DNA of 64,000 nucleotides from Nitrospinales bacterium (GCA_038154245.1 JAYOZP010000001.1:3022-67021), one strand, 5' to 3'; positions 15,075 through 41,793 are shown, counted from the first letter of the stretch. The notes: a model not told the origin generated them from the letters alone. Numbers and translations are program-made.

Positions 15075-15077
15075 ATA

Positions 15078-22755: not shown

Positions 22756-22784
22756 TTGACAATCTATGTCTAAATAGCCATAAT
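22756..22784 (+). promoter_or_regulatory. Sigma-70-type promoter for the toxin-antitoxin operon
   Basis: TTGACA (22756-22761), 17-nt spacer, CATAAT (22779-22784). An upstream 6-bp inverted repeat 'tatgtc...gacata' and a 'tatgtc' inside the spacer could be operator half-sites. Confidence 0.6.
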
Positions 22785-22800
22785 AATAGAAGGTAGAAAA

Positions 22801-23151
22801 ATTAAAAGTTTAGTTTGGGTTGGCGATTCCAAGAAAAGATTAAAGGCGTTTCCACAGCAAGTACAAAAGGATATAGGGTATGCGCTTCAATTTGCCCAAG
22901 TTGAGGATGTGCATCCATCCGCAAAGCATTTAAAGGGTTTTAAACCGGCAGTTATGGAAATTGTAGCGGACCATAAAACAGATACCTTTAGAGCGGTTTA
23001 TACAACGAAAACTGAGGAAATGGTTTATGTCCTGCATTGTTTTCAGAAGAAATCAAAGACAGGTATCAAAACGCCAAAAAAAGAAATAGACATTATCGAA
23101 GCGCGTTTGAGACAAGCCGTTGCAATAGATAAGGAGAGAAAAAATGGCTAA
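22801..23151 (+). CDS. Gp49/HigB-like (RelE superfamily) toxin, with a non-canonical start or an inactivated start codon
   Basis: 'VLHCFQKKSKTGIKTPKKEIDIIEARL' is the family hallmark. Family-like sequence, 'KSLVWVGDSKKRLKAFPQQVQKDIGYALQFAQ', continues in frame upstream of the ORF-track GTG at 22909. Between the upstream stop (22771) and that block there is no ATG, GTG or TTG. ATT at 22801 follows 'aggtag'. Confidence 0.6.
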   Translation: MKSLVWVGDSKKRLKAFPQQVQKDIGYALQFAQVEDVHPSAKHLKGFKPAVMEIVADHKTDTFRAVYTTKTEEMVYVLHCFQKKSKTGIKTPKKEIDIIEARLRQAVAIDKERKNG

Positions 23152-23473
23152 AAACAAAGACTATGAAGAAAGTTCCGGCAACGTTTTTAAAGACTTGGGA
23201 CTTTCAAACGCCGATGAAGAATTTTTAAAAGCAAATCTCGCCATCACTATCCATCGTATTATTAAAAAGCGCGGCCTGACTCAACAGCAAGCCGCAGAGC
23301 TTTTAGGCGTGGATCAACCGGAAGTTTCCAAACTTAAAAAAGGATTGTATTCCCGGTTTAAAGTGGAGAGGCTTTTTCAATTCTTAAATAAACTAGGTCG
23401 CAGAATTGAAATTAAGGTAAGAAAACCTAAGAAGGATGAACCTCTGCAAGCTTTTCAAGCCGTAGGGATATAA
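23144..23473 (+). CDS. XRE-family HTH antitoxin (HigA-like)
   Basis: 'RGLTQQQAAELLGVDQPEVSKLKKG' is a helix-turn-helix. It overlaps the toxin stop by 8 nt. The 'RFKVERLFQFLNKLG' tail is typical of partners of Gp49-like toxins. Confidence 0.75.
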   Translation: MAKNKDYEESSGNVFKDLGLSNADEEFLKANLAITIHRIIKKRGLTQQQAAELLGVDQPEVSKLKKGLYSRFKVERLFQFLNKLGRRIEIKVRKPKKDEPLQAFQAVGI

Positions 23474-23615
23474 AAAAATGATTTTCGAGTCAAACCTTTC
23501 GATAGCTTTCCTCTAAAAACATCCTCTCTTCTATTTTTGATTTTTCATTTTTGGTTTGTTTTTATGTATCATAAAGGACGTTATGGTACACAAAAGTTTC
23601 AATACATAAACATCT

Positions 23616-24278
23616 TCATTGGTTTATAGAAATTGCACATAGTTCTTCCAATTCTTTTCGTGCATTCTCATCATTTGATTCCTTATATAACCCAAATATT
23701 CTAGTATATTTTTGGTCAATCTCAGATGGTGCAGCTGAGAGTGTTTGAGTCATGTACAAACTCATAAGTGAACTTTTTGCAAAAAACTGGGCGAAAAAAT
23801 TTTCCCTGACTAGGCATTGGGCTATCCATTTTAGTGGAATCATAGCGGTAACTATCATCAATAGATACAATGTGGTCTCTTGCAATAACACTTTAAAATT
23901 ATCCCCAAAAATGAAAAGAACACTTTTGATTAAAATCACATAACCTAACAACTTGTACACCCAGAAATTACTTTCGTTAATGTGAGTCATTATTGCTGTT
24001 TTCATTTCAAATGACGGAAAAACAGCAATAAATGCCAAAGTTAAAGGTTCTTCAAATATTGTATATCCCAAGAAAAGAATAGATCCGGTCAATAATGCTC
24101 TCAGAACAAAGCCTCCAAGAAACATACCTGTGTTTACCAACAAAGCCATAAAATGAACTGTATAAAGTTGGGAATAAGAAGCCCTCAGCATTCCTTCCGC
24201 CCATATTTTGAATAAAATTGGCTCCACCATTTGCCAAATAGGGTTATTCTCTCCAGGAATTGTATATTTCTTAAACAT
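23616..24278 (-). CDS. Hypothetical polytopic membrane protein co-oriented with the integrase
   Basis: It has 5-6 hydrophobic helices. ATG at 24278 with SD 'gagga' 5 nt upstream, preferred over the TTG at 24323. Confidence 0.5.
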   Translation of the reverse strand: MFKKYTIPGENNPIWQMVEPILFKIWAEGMLRASYSQLYTVHFMALLVNTGMFLGGFVLRALLTGSILFLGYTIFEEPLTLAFIAVFPSFEMKTAIMTHINESNFWVYKLLGYVILIKSVLFIFGDNFKVLLQETTLYLLMIVTAMIPLKWIAQCLVRENFFAQFFAKSSLMSLYMTQTLSAAPSEIDQKYTRIFGLYKESNDENARKELEELCAISINQ

Positions 24279-24319
24279 TTTGTTCCTCACAAATAAGAAC
24301 GCTCCACAGCATCCCCATA

Positions 24320-25255
24320 TCAATAATTAACTGCAAAACTCGCGCTGTTTTTGTGGTTTGTTTTCCTCTTGTCATACATTTGCGTAGTATCAAGCCGCGC
24401 ATGAGAAACCGTCTTTTGCACGTCTTCAATATTCCAACCGTTTTCTAAAGCTTCCGTTACAAAGGTTGCCCTGGCCGAATGCGGCGAAACACCTTTAACT
24501 ATACCAACCTGGGCGCGATATTTGTTCCAAATAAGATCTAAATTCTGCGGCGTTAAATGCTTTCGCAAATGAGCGGAGCGGATCGCCAGGAACAACGGCG
24601 CGTCCGGTTCGTTGCCGTGGCCGGATGCCTCTAAATACCGTTCAATAGCTTTTTGCGCCTTTGGATTAACCGCAACACAGTTGCGCTTATCTCCCTTAAC
24701 GTGAAAATCCAAAACTTTGTATTCGCCGTCGTCAAAAAAATCTTTAACCTTCAGCTTGCCTACTTCGGCAATACGACAACCGCAATAAAAGAAAACATGC
24801 AAAATGGCGCTGTCTCTTAGCCCTTGTAATGTTGCGGTGTCCGGCACGTTAAGAAATTCCTGCACTTTGAACGGCGTAAGGGTTTTGGTTTTAACTTTAT
24901 CTCGTTTTTCTTTCGGTCGTTTAATGCCGAGCGTTGGATTGTGTTGAGCCAGTTGTTTTTCACAAAGATGGTTGAACAAAGAAGAAACCGCAGAAATACG
25001 ACCGCGAATAGTCGCGGAGCTTGCCCCGTTTTTTATGAGCACGTCGCGGTATGCGATCACGTGGGCCTGGTCAATTTCGTAAAGCTCGTCTGAAGTTTGG
25101 ATTTGATGAAACCCGATAAACTCCCTTATAGCGTTTTGATAGGTTTTGCGTGTCCGATCTGAAATGAAGTTAGCCAGCCAAACCGATTCTTGGGGAATTT
25201 CGGCAAGCATTTTTAACTTGGGCTGGTGGATTAGATCGGCGGGTTTTTGATTCAT
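24320..25255 (-). CDS. Tyrosine-type site-specific recombinase/integrase
   Basis: SAM-like N-domain followed by a catalytic domain with 'CGCRIAEV', 'HSARATFVT' and 'LDTTQMYDKR' (R...H-x-x-R...Y). Confidence 0.85.
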   Translation of the reverse strand: MNQKPADLIHQPKLKMLAEIPQESVWLANFISDRTRKTYQNAIREFIGFHQIQTSDELYEIDQAHVIAYRDVLIKNGASSATIRGRISAVSSLFNHLCEKQLAQHNPTLGIKRPKEKRDKVKTKTLTPFKVQEFLNVPDTATLQGLRDSAILHVFFYCGCRIAEVGKLKVKDFFDDGEYKVLDFHVKGDKRNCVAVNPKAQKAIERYLEASGHGNEPDAPLFLAIRSAHLRKHLTPQNLDLIWNKYRAQVGIVKGVSPHSARATFVTEALENGWNIEDVQKTVSHARLDTTQMYDKRKTNHKNSASFAVNY

Positions 25256-25308
25256 GGGTTTTATTGTGTGCTATCTCTGTTTCAAATTCTGAGAGAAGTA
25301 TAACACTC

Positions 25309-25340
25309 TTACTTGAGATAAAAAGGATTATCTCAAGTAA
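25309..25340. repeat. Perfect 13-bp inverted repeat with a 6-nt spacer
   Basis: 'ttacttgagataa' - 'aaagga' - 'ttatctcaagtaa'. It lies between the integrase start (25255) and the GT2 stop (25379). No adjacent T-run is present on either strand. Confidence 0.6.
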
Positions 25341-25378
25341 CTGAACTTTGTTTTAAAAGTTAATCATTTCGGCAAGGT

Positions 25379-26323
25379 TTAGGAACTGGCGGTAATACTT
25401 ATTTTTTCGATTTCGGCGTCTTCCACCGTGCGAGTGGATTGGATGTGGTAACGTCTTACCAACATCCTCATCAAAAACTTTAACGCGCCCAATTTGCTCT
25501 TAAACAAAACAGAACCTTGGCCGCGAGAACAAAAATATTGAATATCCTTAAACTGATGTTTCAATATAGTGGGGAGGTATCTAAAAAATAAACTGAGGGA
25601 ATAATTTTTAATTAAAACCAGCATATCATTCCGCTTACATAAATAAACATAACGGTCGCTATACAGCCCAACCGTTGCTGTCCCTATGTGATATACCTTG
25701 GCTTTTGGTAAGTAAACCGTTTTTAGTCCGCGCAATTGGCCGCGCATATTTAAATCGACATCTTCAGCAAAAATAAAAAAGTCTTCGTCAAATAAACCTA
25801 TCGATTCAAAAAAACTTCTTCGATAGATTCCGGCTCCAGCGCAGGCTCCAAAAACATACTCTTCTTTATCAAACTGACCAACGTCTTTTTCGCCCTGGCC
25901 TCGTCCTCCACCGGCTGACCAGATATGAAATAGATCGCCTGTGTTATAAAAAGCTTCTCGATCATGCAGAAACATCATCTTAGTTGTTCCCATACCGCAT
26001 TCAGGGTGTCGCTCCATCCCCGAATATAATTCGCTCAACCAATCTTCGGCAACTTCAATATCGTTGTTTAAAAGACAAATATATTCTCCCTTGGAGGCTT
26101 TGTAACCTTCATTGCACGCTATAGCAAATCCTAAGTTTTCGGGCAATTCCACCAATTTGACCCAAGGATACTTCTCCTTGATCATCTCTTTTGAACCATC
26201 GGTCGAGCCGTTATCGACAACAATCGTTTCAAAATCCTCGAAATCGGATTTCAACATAGAGTCCAGGCACATACCCACTAAATGAATCCCATTCCAGTTG
26301 GGAATGACAACGCTAATTTTCAT
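25379..26323 (-). CDS. Family 2 glycosyltransferase (rhamnosyltransferase-like)
   Basis: 'ISVVIPNWNG...IVVDNGSTDGS', 'LLNNDIEV' and 'EDVDLNMR'. Confidence 0.8.
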   Translation of the reverse strand: MKISVVIPNWNGIHLVGMCLDSMLKSDFEDFETIVVDNGSTDGSKEMIKEKYPWVKLVELPENLGFAIACNEGYKASKGEYICLLNNDIEVAEDWLSELYSGMERHPECGMGTTKMMFLHDREAFYNTGDLFHIWSAGGGRGQGEKDVGQFDKEEYVFGACAGAGIYRRSFFESIGLFDEDFFIFAEDVDLNMRGQLRGLKTVYLPKAKVYHIGTATVGLYSDRYVYLCKRNDMLVLIKNYSLSLFFRYLPTILKHQFKDIQYFCSRGQGSVLFKSKLGALKFLMRMLVRRYHIQSTRTVEDAEIEKISITASS

Positions 26324-26325: not shown

Positions 26326-29190
26326 TCAGTAACCTGTAGAAGGTTTAAGCCCTTTTAATTTACCAACAGCGTCTGATAATAATCTGGTCTCGGATTTCAG
26401 TTCTTTGGAGGCTGTTTCTAGCGCTAAATGATTTACATACTCAAAAACTGGAGCGTACAAATAGGCAAATATTTTTGAACTTAAATCGTTATCGATTAAA
26501 AACCTCCGGAACGCCACGGTTTTTTTTACGAAAGATTTTCCCGACTCGTCTACTTTTCTTAAAACACAATCTCTTTGGAGAGTTTCGAAAAATACTCGGT
26601 AAAACTTTAACGATCGATTGTATTGAGCTTGAAACGAAAGATTATGCGAATGAAAAACAGCCGCTTTAGGTTGGTACGCTATTTTGTACCCTTGACATTG
26701 CATGTTTCCAGCCCATACTCGATCTTCAGCCCAATCAATGGTTTCATCAAAGGGCGAGCGAATAAGATCAGATTTTCTCATAGCGGAATTAGCGTTGGAA
26801 AAGAAATTATCTTCAGCTCTTTCTAAGTAATGTTCGCCAAACGTATCGGCTAATATCTTTCGTTCAAATAAGCTGGCCCAACCTTCCATTGGCCTCTCAG
26901 AGCCATGAACGCCAGCTATCTTCGGATCGTTTAACGGTTCGATCAACGCCTTCAACCATCTTTCATTTTCGGGAACGGCATGAGCGCTGAGATTTACTAC
27001 GATTTCTCCTCGCGCAAGTTGAGCCCCCAAATTAAGCGCTTTGGCGTAATGAAACGATTCGGGCGATATACGAACAATTGTGATAGGAAACCGTTTTGCT
27101 ATTTCAATGGTTTGGTCTTTAGAGCCTGAATCAATTAAAACAACTTCCCAACTTGTCTCTTCTTGTTTTGAAATTACCGTCAACGTTTGTTCTAAAAATT
27201 TCTCTTCGTTTAAAGTTCGAATAATTATGGAAATTTTTGGAGAAATTTCTTTTTTAGAAGTCTGGATAATTTCATAATTTAACGGTGTTATAGAATGGAT
27301 TTTATCCGCTTGTGTTTTTTCTTTAAGCCAAGATTGAAACAAAGGCGAAGCTAGATTAAACAAAGAAAACATAGAGGAGTAAGCTCGCTCTTCCAATCCG
27401 AGAGCCCCTGATTCAACTTGTCTCAGCTTCCAATAGTAATCCCACGCGGATTGGTGATTTGGATTGAGGTGAACGCAATTCTTAAAATGTTGCAGAGCTC
27501 CTTCGCTGTTTCCTTCCTCTAATGAAATCGTACCCAAATGGAAATGGGCCCCAGCTGCATACACTAACGCGTCTTCATAGTCGTAAGCTATTTGCACAAT
27601 TTTTTGGAATTGCTCGCGAGCTTTTATGAAATCGCCTCGGCGCTTATACACCGACCCCATAACGTGGTAACAAGTCAACGCTTGGGGAAATTCATCTAAT
27701 ATTGATTCGGCTCCTTGGACAACTTGGTCATACTCTTCCATTTGAAAGAGAGGAGTTAGTTGATCTAATTTACCATCGGAAATTTCCCTATCCTTTTTCA
27801 ACATACGGGTTTTTTCTTGCGCTAAGGACTTGGGCCGCGTTGTCGTTTCAAAAGGTTGAGCCTCTTCAAAAGCTTGACGCATAGTATCTGCGGTTTCTAA
27901 AATTTGCTCGCGCGAATAATTAGGGTAACTCACCACGGTATCGCTAATGCCGTTAAATCTGTCTAGATCGTCGGTAACTAGCCATCCATTTTTGACCGCT
28001 TTCTTGTAAAAATCTGTTGCAGGATGCGGAACCGCAATAGAAGCTTGCCAGCTGGAAAGTAATCCTTTGGAAATTACTCTTTTTCCAAATTCAATGGTTT
28101 TACGATCTCCTTCAGGAGTCGAGCCAGAAGCTCCAAATAGAAAAGTGCCATACATTTCTATTCCCAACTTTTTGGCGACTTTCAAAATTTTCTCTAGTTC
28201 GTCGGATCGAGTTTTAACTAGTCCGATGCTCTGTCCAGTATCTTCGTCAACGCTTTCAATTCCGACTCGCAATTTGTAGTAACCAGCTTTTTTGATCGCC
28301 TCTAATATTTCTTCATCTAAGCGCTGATGGTTAGCCATTGCCTCGTAACGGAGATCGTTATTTCCGGACGAAATTAGCGCGTCGGAAAACTCCAGAATAT
28401 CTTTTTTGCGAATGATGTGAGTTTCTTCGTTAAAAAAACATCCTTCCATTTCTGGGTATTTGCGTCGAAGCGTTTCAATTTCGTTAACAATCCGAGAGGT
28501 TTTGCGAAACCTCCAATTGATATTTTCGTAATAAACCGTGCCAGCTACGCAAAAGTCGCAGGTGTATGGGCATCCTCTTGACGGATGAACCTCTATTTCT
28601 CGATACTTCGTCCAACGATGACCGCCAGAGTAGCTATAATCGATTCTTCTTATATCTTCATCTTCTGGATCTGGAAGCCAATCTAAATCCAATACTTTTC
28701 TATAAGACTTAGGGTATAAGCCTTCGATTGATTTGGGATCTTTCCCTTTTAAAATATCTAAAACCGTTTCTTCGAATTCGCCGACACAGGCATACTGAAA
28801 CCCGTCTTCTACAACCTTTTCAGGCCAGGCAGTTGGATATTGCCCCGTCATAATGACTTCTGCCCCTAGATTATTGCGCGCGTGACGAGCAACCTTTAGA
28901 GTTTCAGCATAAGAAACAGTGTCTACTTCAAAAATAACCCAATCTGGTTTTTCAAGATCTAGGTATTGCTTGTAATCTTCTGCCGTAAAACGCATCCATG
29001 CGCCATCTATCATCTTTATATGATCGTTTGGCAATTCGCGTTTTAGAAGGGTTGATAGGTATGCTAATTCGTATGGATAATAAATGAAAACCGGATAACC
29101 GGTAAACATACTGGTCCATCGGCTAGGAAATGGGCAAATATACCTATTTTCTGGCAACCTACCGGGAGGATTACAAACAAGTATCTTCAT
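26326..29190 (-). CDS. Tri-domain fusion: B12-binding-type radical SAM, then TPR, then GT2 glycosyltransferase
   Basis: N-terminal part: 'PSRGCPYTCDFC' with the downstream 'RVGIESVDE' and 'MYGTFLFG' blocks shared with the other class-B-like paralogues. Middle: TPR units ('ALTCYHVMGSVYKRRGDFIKAREQFQK', 'GALQHFKNCVHLNPNH'). C-terminal part: 'ISIIIRTLNEEKFL...VVLIDSGSKDQT' and 'NSAMRK...EDRVWA' (GT2). Confidence 0.75.
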   Translation of the reverse strand: MKILVCNPPGRLPENRYICPFPSRWTSMFTGYPVFIYYPYELAYLSTLLKRELPNDHIKMIDGAWMRFTAEDYKQYLDLEKPDWVIFEVDTVSYAETLKVARHARNNLGAEVIMTGQYPTAWPEKVVEDGFQYACVGEFEETVLDILKGKDPKSIEGLYPKSYRKVLDLDWLPDPEDEDIRRIDYSYSGGHRWTKYREIEVHPSRGCPYTCDFCVAGTVYYENINWRFRKTSRIVNEIETLRRKYPEMEGCFFNEETHIIRKKDILEFSDALISSGNNDLRYEAMANHQRLDEEILEAIKKAGYYKLRVGIESVDEDTGQSIGLVKTRSDELEKILKVAKKLGIEMYGTFLFGASGSTPEGDRKTIEFGKRVISKGLLSSWQASIAVPHPATDFYKKAVKNGWLVTDDLDRFNGISDTVVSYPNYSREQILETADTMRQAFEEAQPFETTTRPKSLAQEKTRMLKKDREISDGKLDQLTPLFQMEEYDQVVQGAESILDEFPQALTCYHVMGSVYKRRGDFIKAREQFQKIVQIAYDYEDALVYAAGAHFHLGTISLEEGNSEGALQHFKNCVHLNPNHQSAWDYYWKLRQVESGALGLEERAYSSMFSLFNLASPLFQSWLKEKTQADKIHSITPLNYEIIQTSKKEISPKISIIIRTLNEEKFLEQTLTVISKQEETSWEVVLIDSGSKDQTIEIAKRFPITIVRISPESFHYAKALNLGAQLARGEIVVNLSAHAVPENERWLKALIEPLNDPKIAGVHGSERPMEGWASLFERKILADTFGEHYLERAEDNFFSNANSAMRKSDLIRSPFDETIDWAEDRVWAGNMQCQGYKIAYQPKAAVFHSHNLSFQAQYNRSLKFYRVFFETLQRDCVLRKVDESGKSFVKKTVAFRRFLIDNDLSSKIFAYLYAPVFEYVNHLALETASKELKSETRLLSDAVGKLKGLKPSTGY

Positions 29191-29405: not shown

Positions 29406-31559
29406 CTATTTTTTAAGGCCTTTCAGCATTTTCTTAGCGCCGCCATGATCAGGAATCAAGGTCAAACATGCTTTCAAAACTGGTTTCCGGTCTTTTTTTG
29501 GCGTTAAACGGGCCAACCGAAACAAAGCGGCAGCTCGCAACTTTTCATCGCGAAAAGTTTCAGAAAATTTCCTAAATAACTTCTTCGCTTCTTTCTTTTT
29601 TCCTAAATTTTCATAATTTGAAGCCAAAGCATAGCAAAGACCTTCGTTTTCTGGATCTCTGGATTGATAACCTTCTAATGTTTGGTAGATGGGTATCTGT
29701 TCTTTATCTAATTCTCCCATGGCTAGAGCAATTCGAGTACGAACCCATTCGTCTTTCCAGTTCTCCGCTTTATTCCAAGCTTTTTGATACAACTTTTTAG
29801 CGGAACTTTGTTTTCCCGTTTTCGCCAATGAATCAGCCAAGGGCAACCAGCATTCGTATCGCTCGGGCAAAGCCTTTTGGACCATTTTGAATACTCTGAC
29901 TGCCAAAGTGTGACTACCTCTTTGTTGAAGGAGTAAGCCCATACAAAATTGGGCTTCGGGAGTTTCTCCAGTTAACCTAATTTCTTCATTTATTAAAGCT
30001 TCGGCAGAATCTAAATCTCCATCGTTTATTAAATCTTTGGCGTTTAATAAATTTTGAAATTTTGGAGCACAACAAATCTCCGACATCTCATCCTTGTTTA
30101 AATCCGGAACGATGCCAAATAATGAAAAACGAAATATTGGATTATCCAATCCCTGACCAAATAACTTCATATGTTCTAATAAAGTTTCTTTGGCTCGATC
30201 CTTATCCCCAATCTTTAAATACCTCTTAGCAATGGTTGGGCGCAAATAAGGGTTTGCAGAAGCAGAACGAGAGAGTTCATCCAAAGTAATAGATTCTTGC
30301 GATAGATATGCATCCCAATCAAAATCTTCCGTTTTTTGAAATAATGAACTTCCAGATTTTGTATTCTGGAAAAAATTAATCAAGGGTCGACTAACTTTTT
30401 CCCAAGACAAACTTTTACTAGCTAAACTCATTCTCTTTTTTATTTGTCGAATTTTTTCCGGATTTTTTGCCCAATCTACCATGACCTTGGCCAACGCCCT
30501 GTCGTCGCCAAACGGAAGGGTTTCTCCCAATTCATTGTCCTTAATCCAATCGCCTAAAACGTTTCCGGGATTTGTTAAAACAGGTAAATTTGCCCAAACA
30601 TAATCAAGCAATCGGATTCTTTGAGAAAACCGATTTTCGATATGATCGGAGAACGTAACAATTCCGGCGTCGCATTCCGTTAAATAAAATTGACGATTTT
30701 CATATGGAATCCATTCTTTATAGAAAAAAACCGATTTATCTAATAACTTCCATTTTTTTGCTAATTTTTCCGAACGGATATAGGTTTGTGTCGGTTTTGT
30801 CTGCATGGGATTTGCAAAACCCGTAAAAACTAATTTAATTTCAGGATGGGTTTGGGAAATCTGGTTCAACGCCCTTAGCGGAGTCTCCACGTCGTACCAA
30901 TTTGCTAAAGTTCCTCCCCATAGAATAATAAAATCGTTCTCTTTTACTCCTGGCAATACTCCGCGAAAAAATCGCTTTCCTTTTTTCGGCTTGCCGCTAG
31001 GCATTCCAAATGGAACAACATCTACAATAGATTTAAACTCTGGATCTTTTGAATAAACCTCTGGATCAAGTTTGCCCATCAAAGTTAACGCGCCAAGATA
31101 ATAATCGCGGCTTCGTTCACTCGGACACACAAAAAAATCTCCCATCGCTAATTGGCGAGAAAGGTTCAAAACAGAGCTAGAAAAATGAACGTTCTTTTCC
31201 CAACGTTTCATTTCATCCAAAGGCTCTTTCTCCAAACCTTCAAAATACTCATGAACCAATAAATCCACGGCAATAGGGGTTTTATATTTCTTTGCGTAAT
31301 TTGCAATGGCTGTATGGTGAGCGTATATCGCATCGGCCCAGCGCACATGAGTTTCTAGAGTGTTTTGATATTCGTAGGAAATTTTTTGAATGGGGAATGT
31401 TTCTTTATGGTTGGTTATCTCGTATGGAGTCAGTAAACGAACTTCAAAGAAACGACTCAAAACACGGGCTATCTCTAATTGGCGTATTCCCAAACCGCCA
31501 ATTCTTCCCGTAACAGGTTCCGAAGCAAAAATAGCGATTCTACTTTTACGCTTCGGCAA
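29406..31559 (-). CDS. GT1/GT4-type (GT-B) glycosyltransferase fused to a C-terminal TPR-like module
   Basis: N-terminal 'IAIFASEPVTGRIGGLGIRQLEIARVL' and a later 'ILWGGTLANWYD...DAGIV' Rossmann pair. The C-terminal ~210 aa are colinear with the C-terminus of the upstream protein. Confidence 0.6.
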   Translation of the reverse strand: MPKRKSRIAIFASEPVTGRIGGLGIRQLEIARVLSRFFEVRLLTPYEITNHKETFPIQKISYEYQNTLETHVRWADAIYAHHTAIANYAKKYKTPIAVDLLVHEYFEGLEKEPLDEMKRWEKNVHFSSSVLNLSRQLAMGDFFVCPSERSRDYYLGALTLMGKLDPEVYSKDPEFKSIVDVVPFGMPSGKPKKGKRFFRGVLPGVKENDFIILWGGTLANWYDVETPLRALNQISQTHPEIKLVFTGFANPMQTKPTQTYIRSEKLAKKWKLLDKSVFFYKEWIPYENRQFYLTECDAGIVTFSDHIENRFSQRIRLLDYVWANLPVLTNPGNVLGDWIKDNELGETLPFGDDRALAKVMVDWAKNPEKIRQIKKRMSLASKSLSWEKVSRPLINFFQNTKSGSSLFQKTEDFDWDAYLSQESITLDELSRSASANPYLRPTIAKRYLKIGDKDRAKETLLEHMKLFGQGLDNPIFRFSLFGIVPDLNKDEMSEICCAPKFQNLLNAKDLINDGDLDSAEALINEEIRLTGETPEAQFCMGLLLQQRGSHTLAVRVFKMVQKALPERYECWLPLADSLAKTGKQSSAKKLYQKAWNKAENWKDEWVRTRIALAMGELDKEQIPIYQTLEGYQSRDPENEGLCYALASNYENLGKKKEAKKLFRKFSETFRDEKLRAAALFRLARLTPKKDRKPVLKACLTLIPDHGGAKKMLKGLKK

Positions 31560-33936
31560 AACGCTCCTCCAAGTTCTTTAGTTCTCTTATAGCGCCTGAA
31601 TGCAAAGGATTTAACTCAAGACATTTTTTGAGCATATCCTCTTTTTCTTCCGATTCAGTTAATCGCGCTAATCTAAACCATACAGCGGCTAAAAGATGGG
31701 ATCGTCGAAAAGTTTGAACAAAATTTTCAAATAAACTACGAGCCTGATTACTATTTCCCTCGCTCTCTAAAGCAGAAGCGTAAGCATAGGCCAATTGCTC
31801 GTTACCGGGATCTTTCTGAAAAAAATATTGTAATGAATCGGAACGAATCCGAATATTTTCATCTAATCGAGCCAAAGCCAAAGCGCATTGTGTGCGAATC
31901 CAATCCGCATCTTCGGTTTCATTTGCGCGATCCCAAAGCTCTAAATAAACATTTTTTGAATTATTAACATTCCCACACTTTTCTTTTACTTGCGCAAACT
32001 TTAACCAAACATCCATTCGAAATGGTTTCTTTCCAAGAAATTTTTGAAAAAGACTTGCCGCATATTGATTATTGCCTTTAACGCTTGCTAGCAATCCTTC
32101 GTGGAAATCTATTTCCGCATTTTGACCAAAAAGAGTTTTCTCCTCTTTTATTAATCGTTCCGCATCGTTTATCTTATTTTGTTTCAGGCTCATCGAGGCT
32201 AAAACCAAGCGTAAATGATTTGTTTCTGGACGCAGATCAATCAAATTTTCTAGAGTATTCATAGCCTTATCTATTTTTCCAGATTGGTCGTACAATTCGG
32301 CTAAATATTTAACAATTTCTGCATCATAAGGATTGGCTCTTAAGGCTCTCCTGCATTCTTTTATTCCTTTGGAAAAGCGTCCCATATAAGCGTCGCTCTT
32401 ATCTACTATTGGAATTAACGGAGCGTTTTCTGTCAATTCTGCCATTAGCTTTAGTTTTACGTCCGCAGAAAAAGATAACGGATTAATAACCTGACGTTCA
32501 TGACTTATCAAACGGTAAACAGGATAACGACCGTAAGCAATTTTTATCAATTGATACTTTAATCCAGTTATTACTTGCAACCGCTCCATATCAAAATTCG
32601 GATATGTTTTAATAAAATAGATTGGTTTATGCCGTAATAATCCCCCAATTACCGTATCAAAGTAATCCGCCAATATCGGTTCATCCCAGGGACCAATGCA
32701 ATAATGAACAAATTGGTCCGACGCTGGCAGATTGGTTTCATGATAAAGCTGAACAAAGTTTCCCCAAACAAATAACCGTTTATTCTCTTCTTTATTAATT
32801 CGAATCAATCGTCGTAGCGATTTACCTAAAATCGGTAAATAAATATACTGCTCAAATTTTTCACTCCGAGACAAAATACTCACATCATTTGCCTTAAATA
32901 AATAAGGCATCATTCGGTTTCCAGCCCATATTGAAGAAAGGATCAAGGTAACCGTTGAAATTATTCCAATCGTTTCGCCAATTTCCCAAAATCGATCAAC
33001 TCCCAAGCCAGTCGATATTGCTAAAAAAGCGGTTAAGGGGATGTAATGATAGCGAGAAAAACCCTTTTGACACACAATCATGAATAACGCGGTTGCCACT
33101 ACGACAATCATTAATACTCCATGAGGCTGATCAAAATTAAACGCTAGACTGGGCCAACCTAGCAACCACAAAGGTAATGTTTGTTTAGCAATTGTCGCAA
33201 TATCGTTAACGATACTCCCATAAATTCTTTTTAATTGGGCGCATCTTAAAGTCGCGGCAAGACGAAGTTTAAATTGCTTTTGTCCTTCTTCATCTAAATA
33301 TCCTAATCGCCATTCGATGAAATGGGATAATGCTAATGGGACAAAAGCAAATGTAGCGAAAGAAATTGCAGATTCCAATCCTTCCCAATAAATTGCTAGC
33401 CCCGTTAAAAAAACGGAGAATACTGGCACAGAACATTTGGCTACAGCGGCTATCCCAAATAGAAGTCCAGAAATCCAATACCATTCCGGTCCAAGCCCAA
33501 AACAATGCGTTCCCCAAATTACAAAAGGCAAAAATACTTGTTCGAAGTTAAAAGATTCTGTCGAAAACGCAGGCGCCATTCCTAAAATTGCGAATAGAGT
33601 TCCAGAAATCAAGGCTGAGTAGATATTCTCAGAAAAAATATAAACAGAGGCAAAGATACCAACTGATGAGAAGACATGACAAATCGTCAAAAAAATACGG
33701 ATTCTATAAATTCCTCTTTCTGGTTTAGAACCGTAAATAGCGTCTAATACTCGCATTCTCCAAATAGGATAAAAGGAATACATATCTTGTTTCCATTTCA
33801 ATCCTTTTGCGGCAAATCTTGCGCGATAGGTATAAGTCGCCATATCCTCGTCTATCGGGAAATCCAAAAAAGGAATTCGAGATAAAAAGGCGGTTATAAT
33901 TACTATCGCGGCGTATGCAAAAACTTCGATTGTCAT
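31546..33936 (-). CDS. Polytopic GT-C-like membrane protein fused to a C-terminal TPR-like module
   Basis: First-loop acidic motif 'FPIDEDMATYTY', about 10 TM helices, then TPR units ('ALRANPYDAEIVKYLAELY'). It overlaps the downstream gene by 14 nt. Confidence 0.55.
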   Translation of the reverse strand: MTIEVFAYAAIVIITAFLSRIPFLDFPIDEDMATYTYRARFAAKGLKWKQDMYSFYPIWRMRVLDAIYGSKPERGIYRIRIFLTICHVFSSVGIFASVYIFSENIYSALISGTLFAILGMAPAFSTESFNFEQVFLPFVIWGTHCFGLGPEWYWISGLLFGIAAVAKCSVPVFSVFLTGLAIYWEGLESAISFATFAFVPLALSHFIEWRLGYLDEEGQKQFKLRLAATLRCAQLKRIYGSIVNDIATIAKQTLPLWLLGWPSLAFNFDQPHGVLMIVVVATALFMIVCQKGFSRYHYIPLTAFLAISTGLGVDRFWEIGETIGIISTVTLILSSIWAGNRMMPYLFKANDVSILSRSEKFEQYIYLPILGKSLRRLIRINKEENKRLFVWGNFVQLYHETNLPASDQFVHYCIGPWDEPILADYFDTVIGGLLRHKPIYFIKTYPNFDMERLQVITGLKYQLIKIAYGRYPVYRLISHERQVINPLSFSADVKLKLMAELTENAPLIPIVDKSDAYMGRFSKGIKECRRALRANPYDAEIVKYLAELYDQSGKIDKAMNTLENLIDLRPETNHLRLVLASMSLKQNKINDAERLIKEEKTLFGQNAEIDFHEGLLASVKGNNQYAASLFQKFLGKKPFRMDVWLKFAQVKEKCGNVNNSKNVYLELWDRANETEDADWIRTQCALALARLDENIRIRSDSLQYFFQKDPGNEQLAYAYASALESEGNSNQARSLFENFVQTFRRSHLLAAVWFRLARLTESEEKEDMLKKCLELNPLHSGAIRELKNLEERFAEA

Positions 33937-36474: not shown

Positions 36475-37950
36475 TTATTCAAGCGATTTTAATTTATCGA
36501 CTACGACTTGCCTCATAATTTCCTTGGGAGCCCCTACCCCAGTCCATTTTTCAAACTGTTCAGCGGCTTGATTAACAAATAATTCCACTCCTGGTATTGT
36601 AATGCAGCCTACTTCTTTGGCGTCCTTTATTAAGCGCGTTTCCAAAGGGTTATAAACGGCATCGAAAACAACCATATGCGGCTTTAACATATGTTTGGGG
36701 TATGGTGTTTTTGAAACGTCTGGCGTCATTCCCACTGGAGAACAATTGATTATGACATCAAATGAATATGCTCCTATTTCTCGGCTAGATATCACGCGAC
36801 AACCTAACTCCGAGGCTAAGGTTTCGCCACGCTCTTTGTTTTGATTATAGGTTACGGTCAAATCTCCACCTTTTTGCACAACTCCATATCCAATAGCCTT
36901 TGCGGTTCCGCCAGAACCAATAATGAGAGCTTTTTTACCTTTCAAGTCACAACGATCTTCAAAAGCCTTCATCGCTCCCGAATAATCAGTATTATAACCA
37001 ACCCAAATATTACGTTCGCGAACGACAGTGTTGGCCGCGCCGATAGAATCGGCGGCTCCATCAGTCATATCCATAAAGCGACGTACTTTTTCCTTATGCG
37101 GCATGGTTACACTTAAGCCTTCAAAGTAAGGTTCAAAAGCCGGGAAAAATTTCCCTATATCATGAACTAGGAATGGCAGATAAATATGCGGGAGGTTCTT
37201 TTTCTTAAACGCCGTATTATGAATTAAATAACCTAAACTTTTAGAAACAGGGTCGCCAACTACTCCAAAAATTTTATAATCAGGTCGTTCCAAATTTACT
37301 CGATAAACATCTCTTAAAACAGAAGCGGGAATTTGTCCAGGCGCGCTTTCTTTTCCGGTATCAAGAGAACCAAAGGTTAAAAAGCCTCCCATTATCGGAG
37401 ATAAAATCCGACTAATCTCCCCCTGATCTCCCATACAAAACGAAATTAATTTTTTTCCAGATTCATGGGCATGGCGCAATAAATTAAAAACGAGGATGTT
37501 ATCCGTAATGTTTTTTGCATAAGTAACAATCTTTATTATTTCTGCGGGAGTTTCGGACATCGTTTCGTAAAATTCGATTAACGATTCTGGAGTCAGAGAA
37601 AAATGATGGTAGGAAATAATTTTTTTGGTCTTACATTTTGTTTCTAAAATAGGTTGTAGAAATTCTCTAGGAGTTCCCGCTTCAATATCAATGTAATCTA
37701 CTTCAGCGTCTATAGCTTGCCTCAAAAATTTCACTCTCTCTTCTTCGCTTCCTTTAAATTGCCCTCCTTCTCGTTTGTTTCTATTTGTAACTATAACGGG
37801 TTTATCTATAGCCTTAAGTAAATCGGAAAGATTAACGTCGTCAATCAAATCTAACCGCAATTCAATAATATCGGCCACTTCTAAGGCTTTTGGAATATCT
37901 TCCAATGCGCGATTCATAGTTGGGCCAATAATGGGAACGCAAATCATCAA
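36475..37950 (-). CDS. aroDE: Bifunctional 3-dehydroquinate dehydratase (type I) / shikimate 5-dehydrogenase
   Basis: N-terminal 'ICVPIIG...ADIIELRLD' (AroD type I). C-terminal 'FGVVGDPVSKSLGYLIHN', 'LSVTMPHK' and 'IIGSGGTAKA' (AroE). Confidence 0.85.
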   Translation of the reverse strand: MMICVPIIGPTMNRALEDIPKALEVADIIELRLDLIDDVNLSDLLKAIDKPVIVTNRNKREGGQFKGSEEERVKFLRQAIDAEVDYIDIEAGTPREFLQPILETKCKTKKIISYHHFSLTPESLIEFYETMSETPAEIIKIVTYAKNITDNILVFNLLRHAHESGKKLISFCMGDQGEISRILSPIMGGFLTFGSLDTGKESAPGQIPASVLRDVYRVNLERPDYKIFGVVGDPVSKSLGYLIHNTAFKKKNLPHIYLPFLVHDIGKFFPAFEPYFEGLSVTMPHKEKVRRFMDMTDGAADSIGAANTVVRERNIWVGYNTDYSGAMKAFEDRCDLKGKKALIIGSGGTAKAIGYGVVQKGGDLTVTYNQNKERGETLASELGCRVISSREIGAYSFDVIINCSPVGMTPDVSKTPYPKHMLKPHMVVFDAVYNPLETRLIKDAKEVGCITIPGVELFVNQAAEQFEKWTGVGAPKEIMRQVVVDKLKSLE

Positions 37951-38024: not shown

Positions 38025-40082
38025 TTATCGAGGACTTGCCGCAATATTTCCGCCATCAATCGTTAAAACGCTTCCGGTAGTTTTTTCAGCCAAAGTCAAA
38101 TGCAAAAATCCTTCGGCCACGTCGCAATCGTATACTTCTTGGGAAAGAAGATTATTTTTAAAATAATCGTCCGGCTGTAAATTTCTAGCCGCTGCGCGTT
38201 CTTTAATAAACTCTTCAGAAAACATTCCGGTGCGCACTCGGTCGGCATTCACGGCGTTTGCTCGAATATTATGCGATCCATAATCTAAAGCATACTGCTT
38301 TGTCAAAGCGACAACAGCGGCTTTAGGAAGCGCGTAAGGTCCAAAGTCTTTTCCCGGATTGAACGCAGCTTTAGAAGCGTTGAAAAGCAACACGCCTCCG
38401 GTCTTTTGCGCCATAAAAATTTTAACGGCTCTAGAGGCCAACGCTTGGTGCGCAAAAAAATTCAATTCAAAGCTATCGCGTAACGCTTTTGGATCTACAT
38501 GGCCAATACTGCCTTGCACTGCATTACCGGCATTCGAGATTAAAATATCTAATCCTCCATATGTTGCCAAGAGGATTGAAAAACTTTCGTCCAAAGCTTT
38601 TTCATCTGTAATATCCAAAGTTTGAATCGTTGCATGGCCTTTGGATAATTTTTTTAATTCTTCCGATGCGGCGGACAACTTTTCGCCATCTCTATCTAAC
38701 AAAAACAAATTCGCTCCATGCTGAGCAAATAAACGCGCTGTTCCCAGGCCAATCCCCGAAGCGGCTCCTGAAATCAAAACAACTTTTCCTTGAAGTTTAG
38801 GCGGTACGCTTTTTCCCAGCTTCGCTTGCTCCAACGACCAATATTCCATGTCGAATAAATCGTCGTCTTTCAATGGATCAAATTTGCCCACGCTAAACGC
38901 TTTACGAACAACTTGAAAGGAGCGCTCATAGACATCCGCAGCAATGCGGGTTTCCTTGACCGTTTTTCCAATCGTTACTAAACCAACGCCTGCAATCAGA
39001 GCAACTCTGGGTAAAGGATCTAATTCAGTTTTATCGACTCCTTTTTTCTCTTTGTTGCTTTTAAAGTAACAATGGTAGCTTTCGATATAATTATCTAAAG
39101 ACTGCGATATTTCTTCACGAAGAGCGTTGTCGTCGTCTAGATTCTTTGGATTTAGTAATAACGGTTTTTGCTTCGTTCGAATCACATGATCGGGAGTAAT
39201 TGTGCCAATTTGCGACCAGGTTGCACACTCCTCGCTATTTGCAAAAGATAGAGCGTCTGGATTTTCCCTATAATGAAGAGTCCAAGAAGCTTTGGTGTGT
39301 TCCTGGTAAAGACCTCTAAGGATAGGACTCACTTTTCCTAAAATCTCAGAAGCCTCTAACTTAGGCAATGTCTGTTGAGGACTATAAGATTTTAACTCAT
39401 GCTTTGACACATACTCTTCAGCCCGAGTCACCGCTTCGATATGATAGTCGTAGCTCTCTTTTGCGGTTTCTCCAAAAGTAAATAAACCGTGATTTATTAG
39501 CACCAATCCCTTTACAGAAGGATTTTTTTCGTAAGCTTCGGCAGCGGCTTTGGCTAATAAAAATCCTGGCATGATATACGGCACAACTCCGAGGAAATCG
39601 CCGTAAATTTCTTTACATAATTCAACGGCATTTGGTTGATTGGCTAAAACCAAAATTTCATCGGCATGCGAATGATCTATAAACTTGTGAGGCAAAAAAG
39701 CGTGTAAAAGAGTCTCGACCGATGGATTTGGAGACTTAGCGTCTAACAGATTTACTCGTTGATCGTTGACCATATCTTCATCGCTCAACGAATCTAACTC
39801 TCTTAATTTCAATATATAGTCCAGCTTTACTCCAGGAAGTCCCGGAGGCTCGATCGTGTCCAAATCCCAGCCGCTTCCTTTAACATATAAAACCTTAGTT
39901 TCCTCTCCCACTCTATTTTTTGTAGTCGATTTAACAGAGGTATTCCCTCCTCCATGAATCACTAAAGCCGGATTAGAACCTATCAAACGAGAGGTGTAGA
40001 CCCTTAAGGCAATATCCTCTGAAACGTCTGAATATTTATCGATAGCCGCTTGGGCTTCTTGATCATTCCATCTATTTTCCAT
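38025..40082 (-). CDS. Bifunctional class II aldolase / short-chain dehydrogenase (rhamnulose-1-phosphate aldolase/SDR type)
   Basis: 'MENRWNDQEAQ...RVYTSRLIG...HGGGNTSVK' N-terminus and a C-terminal SDR ('VVLISGAASGIGLG', 'Y..PKAA'). The ATG at 40082 removes the overlap with the upstream gene. Confidence 0.8.
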   Translation of the reverse strand: MENRWNDQEAQAAIDKYSDVSEDIALRVYTSRLIGSNPALVIHGGGNTSVKSTTKNRVGEETKVLYVKGSGWDLDTIEPPGLPGVKLDYILKLRELDSLSDEDMVNDQRVNLLDAKSPNPSVETLLHAFLPHKFIDHSHADEILVLANQPNAVELCKEIYGDFLGVVPYIMPGFLLAKAAAEAYEKNPSVKGLVLINHGLFTFGETAKESYDYHIEAVTRAEEYVSKHELKSYSPQQTLPKLEASEILGKVSPILRGLYQEHTKASWTLHYRENPDALSFANSEECATWSQIGTITPDHVIRTKQKPLLLNPKNLDDDNALREEISQSLDNYIESYHCYFKSNKEKKGVDKTELDPLPRVALIAGVGLVTIGKTVKETRIAADVYERSFQVVRKAFSVGKFDPLKDDDLFDMEYWSLEQAKLGKSVPPKLQGKVVLISGAASGIGLGTARLFAQHGANLFLLDRDGEKLSAASEELKKLSKGHATIQTLDITDEKALDESFSILLATYGGLDILISNAGNAVQGSIGHVDPKALRDSFELNFFAHQALASRAVKIFMAQKTGGVLLFNASKAAFNPGKDFGPYALPKAAVVALTKQYALDYGSHNIRANAVNADRVRTGMFSEEFIKERAAARNLQPDDYFKNNLLSQEVYDCDVAEGFLHLTLAEKTTGSVLTIDGGNIAASPR

Positions 40083-40143
40083 AACGAAATAAAATACCAA
40101 AACTAGGTTTAAAATTAAAGCGTGAAAACAAAAACTAACCGCT

Positions 40144-41793
40144 TCATCGTAAATCAAAAATTAGAATCGAACCATCCCCAACTACTGCGTCGGGTTTCCT
40201 TTGACGCAAAGGCGCATAGAAACCAGCTGGCCGATTATAAACTCCTTGTAGCAAGGTGGCGCTTACGGCAATCACACCTCTTAATTCCAATGTGGACGCC
40301 CCTGTCCATTTTTCCTGAAGAAAAAATGGTAATGCCTCAAACTTGACGCCATAAGCCTCGGGGTTGGCCGTTCCAAAATAACCCAAACGTATTACCTTGA
40401 TTTTATTGTCTTTTTGCCACCTAGCTAAAGCAGGAAGATCCTGCCCCCAATCTAGATTGGAGTCGACTAAGTGAAACCGTTTTCTTTCAGGAGGAATAAA
40501 TTGATTAAAATAAGAAATGTAATGGGGATGAGCGGCAAATACCTCAACAGCTAACCATCCAATTAATATGAATATACCAACCCTCAATTTAGGTAACTTT
40601 ACCAAAGCTCCCGCGAACAAAAATAAAAAAGGATAAACTGACAATAAATAACGTAAACCAAGATTAACCTTCTTTGTCGCTAATACCAAAATAAAACAAA
40701 TTAAAGCAAATCCAATCCACTTTATCTCTTTTCCAATTGGTTCTTTACTAATGAACCTCCAAACTAAGGCTGCAAGCAAAATAATCAACAAAGGAATTGG
40801 CGTTTTGTATACAAAGGCTTTAAAGAAAAAAACCAACCATCCTGCATCGGATATTCCTCCGTCTAAATAATAAACTCTCCCAGACTTAACGGAATTCAAT
40901 CCTAGCCTCAACCCTTCAAAATAATCCGGCATGGGAGCCAGTATTCCTGTTTCTCCAATACTACCTACGGAAAAACCATATAACCCCCAAACAATGAAGA
41001 AAGCTATGAAGGTAACTATCAACCAGGCAATAACCGCGTAAAAAACACCCCTAGCCTTATCTAACCGGTCTAAGACCATACCTGGCAAAAAATACAACGC
41101 TGGTCTAAACTTAATTCCTCCTAGAATCTGGGCTAAAATTAAAATCGCTAATGTAATTGGAATTAATAATAACGCAAGATGTTTAGAACCTATGGCGGCT
41201 CCCAAACATAGCCCAGCGATAATAGCCCTCTTAATTGATGGAGATCTTAAAAAGTTCCAAAACGCAAAATAATAAATAAATAAAAAAAACGTTAATCCCA
41301 AATCAGTAGTGACCAAACGGCTATGAGCTAAAATAGCTGGAGAAAAGCAATACAAGGCTAATGATAAAAGTCCTCCTTCATATCCATATAGCTCCCGCGA
41401 CCACCAAAAAACCATTATCCCCAGCAATACAGATAGGAAAACCGTAACAAACCGAGCTTGTATTATCATCGTTTTGCCATCGTTAGACCCAGACCATAAA
41501 ACTCTTCGCGAATAATGGAAAAAAGGATGCATTTCTGCATTTGCCGAAGGCAATGTAGGATTATTAATTAGGCTTACCGGCAATCCTTGCAAAAAATTAA
41601 CTAATGGAGGATGTTCTTTATTAAGAGTGAATTCTTTTTTCGATATCGGATACAAACCGCGTATTAAATGGTTGGTTTCATCAAATGTCGCCGATTTTTG
41701 AATCAAACTGGATATGGCCAATGAAACAAAAATTGTAAGTAACACAAAGACGGGTAAAAATTGATTTTTTTTAATGGCGGTTAAAAATTCCAC
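40144..41793 (-). CDS. ArnT/PMT-like (GT39/GT83-type) GT-C membrane glycosyltransferase
   Basis: 'SATFDETNHLIRGLY' acidic first-loop motif and about 12 TM helices in an ArnT-like layout. Confidence 0.65.
   Translation of the reverse strand: MEFLTAIKKNQFLPVFVLLTIFVSLAISSLIQKSATFDETNHLIRGLYPISKKEFTLNKEHPPLVNFLQGLPVSLINNPTLPSANAEMHPFFHYSRRVLWSGSNDGKTMIIQARFVTVFLSVLLGIMVFWWSRELYGYEGGLLSLALYCFSPAILAHSRLVTTDLGLTFFLFIYYFAFWNFLRSPSIKRAIIAGLCLGAAIGSKHLALLLIPITLAILILAQILGGIKFRPALYFLPGMVLDRLDKARGVFYAVIAWLIVTFIAFFIVWGLYGFSVGSIGETGILAPMPDYFEGLRLGLNSVKSGRVYYLDGGISDAGWLVFFFKAFVYKTPIPLLIILLAALVWRFISKEPIGKEIKWIGFALICFILVLATKKVNLGLRYLLSVYPFLFLFAGALVKLPKLRVGIFILIGWLAVEVFAAHPHYISYFNQFIPPERKRFHLVDSNLDWGQDLPALARWQKDNKIKVIRLGYFGTANPEAYGVKFEALPFFLQEKWTGASTLELRGVIAVSATLLQGVYNRPAGFYAPLRQRKPDAVVGDGSILIFDLR

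Follow-up and report, generated by a model that had tools for sequence, protein, structure and literature searches.

Covalent fusion of a radical SAM-TPR protein and a family 2 glycosyltransferase in Nitrospinota: origin from a split gene pair and probable coupling in glycan assembly

Does a reading frame that joins a radical S-adenosylmethionine (SAM) enzyme to a glycosyltransferase encode a genuine fusion protein, and does it place radical chemistry and glycosyl transfer in one pathway? The question is raised by a gene in a stretch of 64,000 nucleotides (nt) from a Nitrospinales bacterium (GCA_038154245.1, JAYOZP010000001.1:3022-67021), the whole of which is called the window here. The gene (26326..29190, minus strand) is an uninterrupted open reading frame (ORF) with an ATG start, 954 codons and a stop codon at 26326-26328, as read in the initial annotation of the window, which described a single polypeptide of 954 amino acids (aa). 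It comprises a Rossmann/B12-like domain, a radical SAM domain, tetratricopeptide repeats (TPR) and a glycosyltransferase domain of family 2 (GT2). The fusion is real, derives from two separate genes, is conserved, and represents a recurrent coupling of the two activities. Neither enzymatic domain is of a new kind; what is uncharacterised is their covalent arrangement and the conserved cassette of Nitrospinota that contains the gene.

The domain borders were defined by profiles, alignments and a structural model, with all features on the minus strand. The N-terminal Rossmann-type (B12-binding-like) domain (residues 1-160, 28711..29190) was assigned by PF02310 and by motif comparison with paralogues, and carries a family-specific 'PSRW' strand insertion. 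The PF02310 match was marginal (residues 36-145, 33.1 bits at a cutoff of 32.1): it appeared solely when the N-terminal 180 aa were scanned alone and was not reported in the Pfam scan of the whole 954-aa protein, while orthologues of the fusion reached 39-44 bits. The partial TIM-barrel core of the radical SAM domain (residues 161-445, 27856..28710) was recognised by Foldseek and by PF04055 (residues 203-353, E 1.9e-16, 61.1 bits, cutoff 29.5). Its motif 'CPYTCDFC' (residues 207-214, 28549..28572) is the CxxxCxxC signature of the [4Fe-4S]/SAM cluster, and the cysteines C207, C211 and C214 were invariant in 31 of 31 aligned family members. About three to four repeats form the TPR domain (residues 446-590, 27421..27855), which was delimited by Pfam matches, model helices and the alignment with split relatives; TPR_2 scored 35.1 bits against 27, and TPR_1, TPR_12 and TPR_8 also reached or exceeded their cutoffs, all within residues ~505-582. 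The fusion junction and a helical linker (residues 591-652, 27235..27420) are marked by the ends of stand-alone relatives and by GT2 homology that starts at residue ~599. The catalytic core of the GT2 with its GT-A fold (residues 653-860, 26611..27234) was supported by PF00535 (residues 654-764, E 3.1e-22, 79.7 bits, cutoff 23.3), motif alignment and Foldseek, and the C-terminal helical region seen in the model (residues 861-954, 26329..26610) is homologous to the C-terminus of stand-alone GT2s. The radical SAM, TPR and GT2 parts of the earlier description thus have profile support at or above the cutoffs, and the strings quoted there were all located: besides the cysteine motif these are 'IIIRTLNEE' at 655-663 and 'IDSGSKD' (within '...VVLIDSGSKDQT') at 686-692. 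An AlphaFold2 (AF2) model built on a 52-sequence alignment had a mean predicted local distance difference test score (pLDDT) of 90.2 and a predicted template modelling (TM) score of 0.69. It presented an N-terminal alpha/beta domain, the radical SAM barrel, helical repeats from H465 to H613 with paired TPR helices between H465 and H575, the GT-A domain, and C-terminal helices from H853 to H945; the last ~20 residues (935-954) had a pLDDT below 50. A scan for transmembrane segments predicted none in the fusion protein.

The fused gene is not confined to one assembly. In a word-indexed search of NCBI, ENA, JGI and Logan assemblies, the full architecture was found in seven 90 %-identity clusters (P0001-P0007), and the fused ORF occurred in at least five independent assemblies from these four sources at 85-89 % identity. 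Three of the loci (L003, L004 and L005) belong to metagenome-assembled genomes (MAGs) of Nitrospinota that are GTDB species representatives; they had intact fusion ORFs of 953-955 aa and identical neighbours, in the order 796-aa protein, 717-aa protein, fusion and 314-aa GT2. The same cassette was found in a fused clade of lower identity (P0006/P0007, 63 %), and an intact fused orthologue with the same neighbours was present at locus L017. Selection was estimated from pairwise codon comparisons of the window gene with the three MAG orthologues as the ratio of nonsynonymous to synonymous substitution rates (dN/dS); since dS was saturated, the ratios are rough. They were ~0.01 for the Rossmann domain (codons 1-160), 0.006-0.015 for the radical SAM core (161-445), 0.04-0.09 for the TPR (446-590), 0.045-0.07 for the GT2 core (653-860) and 0.08-0.09 for the C-terminal helices (861-954). 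Across the junction (codons 585-652) the ratio was ~0.15 in two of three comparisons, the third giving no ratio due to saturated dS. Every region that yielded a ratio lay between 0.006 and 0.15 and none came near 1: the whole frame of the fusion ORF is under purifying selection.

The relatives of the protein disclose how it came about. Most of them are proteins of ~600 aa that consist of the Rossmann, radical SAM and TPR parts alone (P0008-P0031, 55-77 % identity); the few named members among them are annotated as Nitrospinota or Nitrospinae. In most Nitrospinota, a split pair of genes encodes first the radical SAM-TPR protein (~600 aa) and then a GT2 (~450-507 aa). The cassette of L001 (a 4.24-Mb contig) and L002 (GCA_024275955.1) consists, in this order, of a TPR protein of ~770-790 aa, a glycosyltransferase of family 4 (GT4) with or without TPR of ~550-810 aa, the radical SAM-TPR protein and a GT2 of 465-507 aa, and in L001 the last two genes overlap by 38 nt. 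The stand-alone pair (P0013/P0071 on the 4.24-Mb contig; GT2 QPJ60992.1, 'Candidatus Nitronauta litoralis') comprises orthologues of both halves in the same four-gene cassette, with identities to the fusion of 55-77 % in the radical SAM-TPR part and 40-51 % in the GT2 part. It differs in being two polypeptides and in an extra N-terminal domain of the GT2, and is likewise uncharacterised. Residues ~599-938 of the fusion align with the downstream GT2 of L001 and L002 from GT2 residue ~130-144 on, at 44-46 % identity. The junction lies directly after the last TPR helix ('YWKL...', ~residue 590), about where the stand-alone radical SAM-TPR proteins stop. The first ~590 residues are orthologous to the stand-alone radical SAM-TPR protein, and the last ~355 to the downstream GT2 without its N-terminal ~130-140 aa. 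All split GT2s carry this N-terminal stretch in conserved form (FCTAP...SWG.GPF...LPLNN..G.GY) and both fused clades are without it; because of this loss, the gene is the product of a deletion-fusion rather than of a one-base slip. No Pfam family matched the lost domain (L001 9772-10200; N-termini of P0068-P0103), which may be a docking domain for the radical SAM-TPR partner. The TPR had been regarded in the initial annotation as the linker of the fusion. This view has to be abandoned: as the split ~600-aa relatives all have a TPR C-terminus, the repeats are ancestral to the stand-alone radical SAM protein, and the actual junction follows them at residue ~590-600.

Neighbour-joining trees were calculated separately for the radical SAM-TPR part and the GT2 part, with 100 bootstraps each. 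In neither half did any of the 100 bootstraps recover the fused proteins as monophyletic. In the radical SAM tree, the fused forms and the split P0008-P0011 made up one clade in 100 of 100 replicates, and the GT2 of P0006/P0007 joined the split GT2s P0068, P0069 and P0078 in 73 of 100. Identity between the two fused clades is ~75 % in the radical SAM half but only ~46 % in the GT2 half. A single fusion event is not the most parsimonious reading of these trees, and the fusion probably arose twice. Three relatives (P0020 at L002 8001-10643, P0023 and P0024) have a class I SAM methyltransferase after the TPR, with the GT2 still as the next gene; on account of these fusions, the C-terminus after the TPR appears to be a hot spot for gaining pathway partners.

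The covalent link had been taken initially as evidence that radical SAM chemistry and glycosyl transfer act in the same pathway beyond clustering by chance. Four independent lines now support this. The GT2 half is the orthologue (44-46 %) of the GT2 gene that lies immediately downstream of the radical SAM-TPR gene in most Nitrospinota; fusion is seen in two clades, which none of the 100 bootstraps of either half united as a monophyletic group; distant radical SAM relatives are fused to GT4 or GT2 in other orders; and the whole frame is under purifying selection. Among the distant relatives, P0190 joins a B12-type radical SAM domain to a GT4, P0195 and P0212 have radical SAM and GT2 without TPR, P0224, P0246, P0249 and P0254 have the order GT2 then B12-type radical SAM, and P0241 reads GT2-GT2-B12-type radical SAM-methyltransferase. 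An exhaustive HMMER scan of 1.84 billion representatives presented P0005 as the sole 50 %-identity cluster with exactly the architecture of the window protein. The architecture is rare but not unique. That no characterised enzyme with this domain order was known, as stated at the outset, agrees with the literature searched, in which no description of a characterised enzyme of this architecture, of a radical SAM-glycosyltransferase fusion or of this cassette was found; the architecture itself, with about seven 90 %-identity clusters and the other fusions of the two enzyme types, does not stand alone. Public names are generic ('radical SAM protein', 'glycosyltransferase family 2 protein').

Which radical chemistry may be expected? 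By sequence, the best PDB match of the radical SAM half was AprD4 (6fd2; phmmer E 5e-13, 19 % identity), and AprD4 was also the best match by fold (Foldseek E 2.8e-18, target-normalised TM 0.79, ~468 columns). AprD4 is the radical SAM 1,2-diol dehydratase of apramycin biosynthesis; it shares the Rossmann-like domain followed by the radical SAM barrel and acts on an aminoglycoside sugar ring, but it is a stand-alone enzyme of secondary metabolism with neither TPR nor glycosyltransferase domain. It dehydrates a sugar diol and binds no cobalamin despite its Rossmann-like domain (PMC12931638). The next fold matches were TsrM, MgmA, OxsB, CysS and TokK. These cobalamin-dependent class B enzymes (TsrM, OxsB, TokK, CysS and MgmA/QCMT) also combine a Rossmann domain with the radical SAM barrel (Foldseek E 1e-10 to 1e-15), yet their target-normalised TM scores of 0.41-0.67 were below that of AprD4, and they have no TPR or glycosyltransferase domains. 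The best curated family was HpnJ (TIGR03471, E 1.4e-40, residues 58-441), with 139.6 bits at a cutoff of 577.6. For HpnJ, a contraction of the glucosamine ring in a glycosylated hopanoid has been proposed (PMC9204698). The resemblance to HpnJ is generic, since other B12-type radical SAM proteins of the window match this model as well or better (152-210 bits). Further models were more distant: ApyD (NF050148) 71.1 bits against 750, BchE (TIGR02026) 70.5 against 481 and AprD4 (NF033070) 59.2 against 500. HpnJ, BchE, ApyD and AprD4 were rejected as the specific family, as was MftF for the GT2 half, all being far below their curated cutoffs.

The designation 'B12-type' holds for the architecture only. 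The fusion protein may or may not bind cobalamin: PF02310 was marginal, AprD4 as best PDB match binds no cobalamin, and a T-G-Q-(Y/H) motif after beta-4 takes the place of the G-G-x-H found in the paralogues at 4442, 7525 and 20821. These three paralogues, with which the initial annotation saw shared core blocks, are genuine but remote (24-26 % identity across ~360 aa, E values from 1e-21 to 1e-23). There is no established sequence rule or motif that is decisive for cobalamin binding in class B enzymes (PMC13331322), and HpnJ, BchE and OxsB are non-methylases (PMC9204698). A label such as 'B12-binding radical SAM' does not prove the use of cobalamin. No cobalamin riboswitch was detected in the window, in which no Rfam family attained its gathering score, and promoter-like and terminator-like sites occurred at chance frequency only.

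For the GT2 half, Foldseek retrieved PcManGT (6yv7), WrtF (9omh), TarP (6h1j), TarS (5tzi) and the chondroitin polymerase K4CP (2z86) with E values of 1e-10 to 1e-12, and phmmer matches in the PDB had E values of 1e-5 to 1e-9. These enzymes share the GT-A fold and the N-terminal nucleotide-binding motifs with the fusion; they differ in an identity of only 14-21 % and in their DXD motif, for which the fusion has Ser-Ala-His (residues 735-737, 26980..26988, placed by alignment to the DXD motifs of K4CP). The domain has no transmembrane or processive-synthase features. Best NCBIfam matches were MftF (TIGR03965, ~62-65 bits, cutoff 280), EpsD and PgaC-like models, without an HpnI model among them; the arsenosugar-type GT2 model TIGR04283 gave 54.8 bits against 182. 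The wider subfamily comprised 573 matches at E<=1e-10, mostly shorter proteins without a radical SAM domain, among them 250-300-aa enzymes of other phyla. Its conserved motifs are IIRTxNE, IDSxSxD, LSAHAxP, FSNANSA, (A/G)ED..W and (F/Y)HSHN, and S-[AG]-H was kept in all cassette GT2s and in all wider relatives aligned. This pattern fits a working variant active site rather than decay, and a broad GT2 subfamily would then operate with Ser-x-His in place of DXD. In family GT27, with its DXH motif, the histidine at the third position can serve as a ligand of Mn2+. His737 and H847/H849 are possible metal ligands. The 'L-S-[AG]-H' subfamily also includes fusions of ~450 aa with a PF02348 cytidylyltransferase of the CMP-sugar synthetase type (P0117, P0125, P0140 and others), which could hint at the class of the donor sugar.

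The fusion protein is probably, with a fair measure of doubt, a cytoplasmic enzyme with two activities that serves a pathway of envelope or extracellular glycans: a sugar is put in place by the GT-A domain, and a sugar of that same intermediate is modified by the radical SAM domain. The fusion gene arose by the merger of two neighbouring genes of a cassette that occurs across the Nitrospinota and probably serves glycan assembly. The GT-A domain would use a nucleotide sugar as donor; its acceptor would probably be a glycan of the envelope or the cell exterior, either lipid-linked or still growing, and it would hold metal and nucleotide probably via His737 and the conserved H847-S-H849 instead of a DXD. 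SAM would be reductively cleaved on the [4Fe-4S] cluster of C207, C211 and C214; the 5'-deoxyadenosyl radical would then abstract hydrogen at one of the sugar carbons of this intermediate, and the tailoring step would follow. Sugar-directed radical chemistry is suggested because AprD4, with its aminoglycoside sugar substrate, tops the PDB matches and HpnJ tops the curated families. Within this general model, the leading candidate for the tailoring would be a non-methylating dehydration, deoxygenation or rearrangement of the AprD4/HpnJ type, though at less than an even chance; a cobalamin-dependent C-methylation would come second, and other chemistries share the smaller rest. The TPR domains of three cassette proteins would bring the enzymes together as docking scaffolds, the GT4-TPR and membrane-TPR proteins being partners of the fusion. 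The N-terminal domain lost from the GT2 was probably the former tether to the radical SAM-TPR protein, a tether made needless by the covalent link.

A glycan setting is seen at several related loci. The P0190 locus holds genes for GT2, glycoside hydrolase (GH) family 5, GT2, GT4 and a Wzy_C-TPR protein, and P0195 is flanked by a PilZ and GT4 gene and a GH8 gene. Downstream of the split pair in L002 are GT9, an MsbA-like ABC transporter and GT87, upstream are Tol-Pal genes. L017 has FkbH-like, short-chain dehydrogenase/reductase (SDR), MaoC and acyltransferase genes and another GT2 upstream, and another B12-type radical SAM gene and a large NHL-repeat protein downstream. Several points weigh against the glycan-directed enzyme as outlined. 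The polysaccharide context stems from distant fusions with 37-41 % identity in the radical SAM half and not from the cassette itself. All family-level matches that would name a substrate, donor sugar or product are far below curated cutoffs; substrate class, step order, cofactor content and reaction type of the fusion protein are what we infer. In the alignment, the fusion has S735-A-H737 where K4CP has its DCD and DSD motifs; because a canonical DXD is lacking, GT2 activity and metal dependence are predicted rather than observed properties. The double origin is read from neighbour-joining trees, in which a single old fusion that later split again or had a domain exchanged is a less parsimonious but possible course. 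Finally, three TPR-bearing proteins could equally point to a protein substrate.

This last point leads to the alternative that survives best, although we regard it as unlikely: a protein- or peptide-directed system, in which the TPR bind the substrate as in O-GlcNAc transferase (OGT) and SPINDLY, the radical SAM domain modifies a side chain, and the glycosyltransferases glycosylate the same protein. The radical SAM enzyme would then resemble those of ribosomally synthesised and post-translationally modified peptides (RiPPs) or class B enzymes of the Mmp10/MgmA type, and the target might be an S-layer or surface protein. In line with this, three cassette proteins carry TPR, the PDB matches to TPR include OGT and SPINDLY, the RiPP enzyme ApyD was the second-best NCBIfam match, MgmA, the glutamine C-methylase of methyl-coenzyme M reductase, was among the top folds, and the large NHL-repeat protein encoded downstream in L001 and L017 is a possible substrate. 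However, neither a precursor-peptide-like small ORF nor a protease or exporter is conserved in the cassette, ApyD scored less than a tenth of its cutoff, and the GH5, GH8, Wzy_C and PilZ genes beside related fusions are typical of polysaccharide loci. TPR scaffolds are well known from exopolysaccharide machineries too.

A GT2 half without catalysis, serving as a nucleotide-sugar- or glycan-binding module that recruits the radical SAM domain to its substrate, is still less probable. The replacement of the DXD by Ser735-Ala-His737 speaks for it. Against it stand the strict conservation of S-[AG]-H and five other motifs over the 573 matches, including short enzymes and cytidylyltransferase fusions, the low dN/dS of the GT2 core and the Mn2+ binding known for a third-position histidine in GT27.

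Very unlikely is a hopanoid or other lipid head group as product, with the GT2 glycosylating a polyol lipid and the radical SAM domain making a cyclitol-like head group. HpnI and HpnJ provide the direct precedent of a GT2 and a radical SAM enzyme, as the GT2 HpnI installs a hexosamine and the class-B-like HpnJ then remodels this sugar by radical ring contraction (PMC9204698), and HpnJ was the best curated family of the fusion protein. Yet HpnI and HpnJ are separate proteins without TPR, the HpnJ score stayed at about a quarter of the cutoff and was surpassed by the three other B12-type radical SAM paralogues of the window, and the best matches of the GT2 half did not include HpnI. The hopanoid gene context is absent: genes of the shc, hpnG, hpnH and hpnK type were missing from the cassette at seven of seven loci (window, L001-L005 and L017), and the one weak HpnH-like match in the window, an ORF at 2010, had 60 bits at a cutoff of 225.

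That two genes were joined artificially by a frameshift or mis-join near 27.3-27.9 kb, a check proposed in the initial annotation, can be dismissed: the halves are separate in most relatives and the out-of-frame 38-nt overlap of L001 could in principle be joined by a single indel, but the independent assemblies with three species-representative MAGs and the 63 %-identical fused clade, the ~130-140 N-terminal GT2 residues missing from the fusion, and the purifying selection across the junction rule such an artefact out.

The preferred glycan-directed enzyme would work together with the products of the neighbouring genes. Directly upstream of the fusion lies a GT4 (Glycos_transf_1, Pfam) with a C-terminal TPR of 717 aa (29406..31559, minus strand); this same gene precedes the radical SAM gene in L001, L002, L003-L005 and L017. 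The first cassette gene encodes a polytopic membrane protein of 796 aa (31546..33936, minus strand; transmembrane scan, TPR by Pfam). Its first ~330 aa contain ~7 transmembrane segments, the first of which is followed by an almost invariant 'PF..FP.DED'; the protein also has an alpha/beta domain and a TPR tail, and its AF2 model had a pLDDT of 89.6. A Pfam scan of the membrane half gave no match for this protein; 27 homologues were scanned as well, and a precomputed PMT_2 assignment was listed for only 2 of 29 homologues. An hhalign comparison with the PMT_2 protein of the window returned 1 % probability, and the sole non-TPR fold match in Foldseek was 7oci_F (query-normalised TM 0.37, rank 22). 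The protein may be a GT-C-like transferase of an undescribed kind. On the other side, a second GT2 of canonical type with 314 aa (25379..26323, minus strand; Pfam, synteny) starts 2 nt past the stop codon of the fusion. With 24 % identity to the cassette GT2 it is a different enzyme, and it is found downstream in both fused clades. The NHL-repeat protein of 1198-1266 aa is encoded in L001 at 11517-15317, directly after the GT2, and in L017 at 15092-18688, and none is present beside the cassette of the window; it could be a substrate or a partner.

Between the 314-aa GT2 and the B12-type radical SAM gene at 20821, the window has an insertion of ~3.2 kb (22210-25378), where L003 and L004 have a gap of ~55-60 nt and L005 has a different three-gene insertion. 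It carries a tyrosine recombinase/integrase (24320..25255, minus strand), a 235-aa membrane ORF without Pfam match (23616..24323, minus strand), a Gp49/HigB-like toxin (22909..23151, plus strand) and an HTH_37 antitoxin (23144..23473, plus strand). Neither a tRNA nor convincing att repeats were found at the insertion, only short chance-like direct repeats.

The pairing of radical SAM and glycosyltransferase genes recurs within the window between 2010 and 12174. A SPASM-type radical SAM gene (2010..3095) stands beside a GT2 (3097..4104), a B12-type radical SAM gene (4442..5965) beside another GT2 (6142..7110), and a further one (7525..9093) beside a PMT_2 (GT-C) protein of 981 aa with a long TPR tail (9229..12174). 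A weak GT87-like match was obtained at 17222. Three adjacent genes of the minus strand encode a fused type I dehydroquinase/shikimate dehydrogenase (36475..37950), a fused class II aldolase/SDR protein (38025..40157) and a PMT_2-type membrane glycosyltransferase (40144..41793). Farther away, a radical SAM protein of 600 aa (55130..56932, minus strand) lies directly upstream of an all-TPR protein of 349 aa (53955..55004, minus strand), the two being separate genes, and a 1217-aa TIR/NB-ARC (STAND NTPase)/TPR protein at 57209-60862 has an architecture typical of prokaryotic conflict or defence systems.

A fusion of the 'Rosetta stone' type that was apparently made twice is about the strongest sign that sequences alone can give of two enzymes sharing an intermediate. 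In the present case, glycosyl transfer is linked to a radical SAM enzyme whose sequence is very strongly conserved (dN/dS ~0.01). To our knowledge, the characterised cases of radical SAM sugar tailoring concern small-molecule antibiotics (AprD4, GenK, DesII) and a single lipid head group (HpnJ), and none concerns cell-envelope polysaccharides. The coupling of radical SAM enzymes of the AprD4/HpnJ kind with glycosyltransferases, both covalent and in operons, might be an unrecognised and widespread strategy, with radical tailoring on a lipid-linked or polymeric glycan instead of on a nucleotide sugar; this proposal is tentative and more doubtful than the glycan role of the fusion protein itself. 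It is suggested by the two apparently independent fusions in Nitrospinota together with the radical SAM-GT4, radical SAM-GT2, GT2-radical SAM and GT2-GT2-radical SAM-methyltransferase proteins elsewhere, and the tailoring, if the proposal is true, would be a C-methylation, a deoxygenation or a ring rearrangement. The version in a single polypeptide offers biochemists a tractable and defined entry point. Nitrospinota are the dominant marine nitrite oxidisers and mostly uncultured. The cassette was present throughout the Nitrospinota sampled, and if the strategy holds, it would make an unusual, lineage-defining envelope glycan of the main nitrite oxidisers of the ocean.

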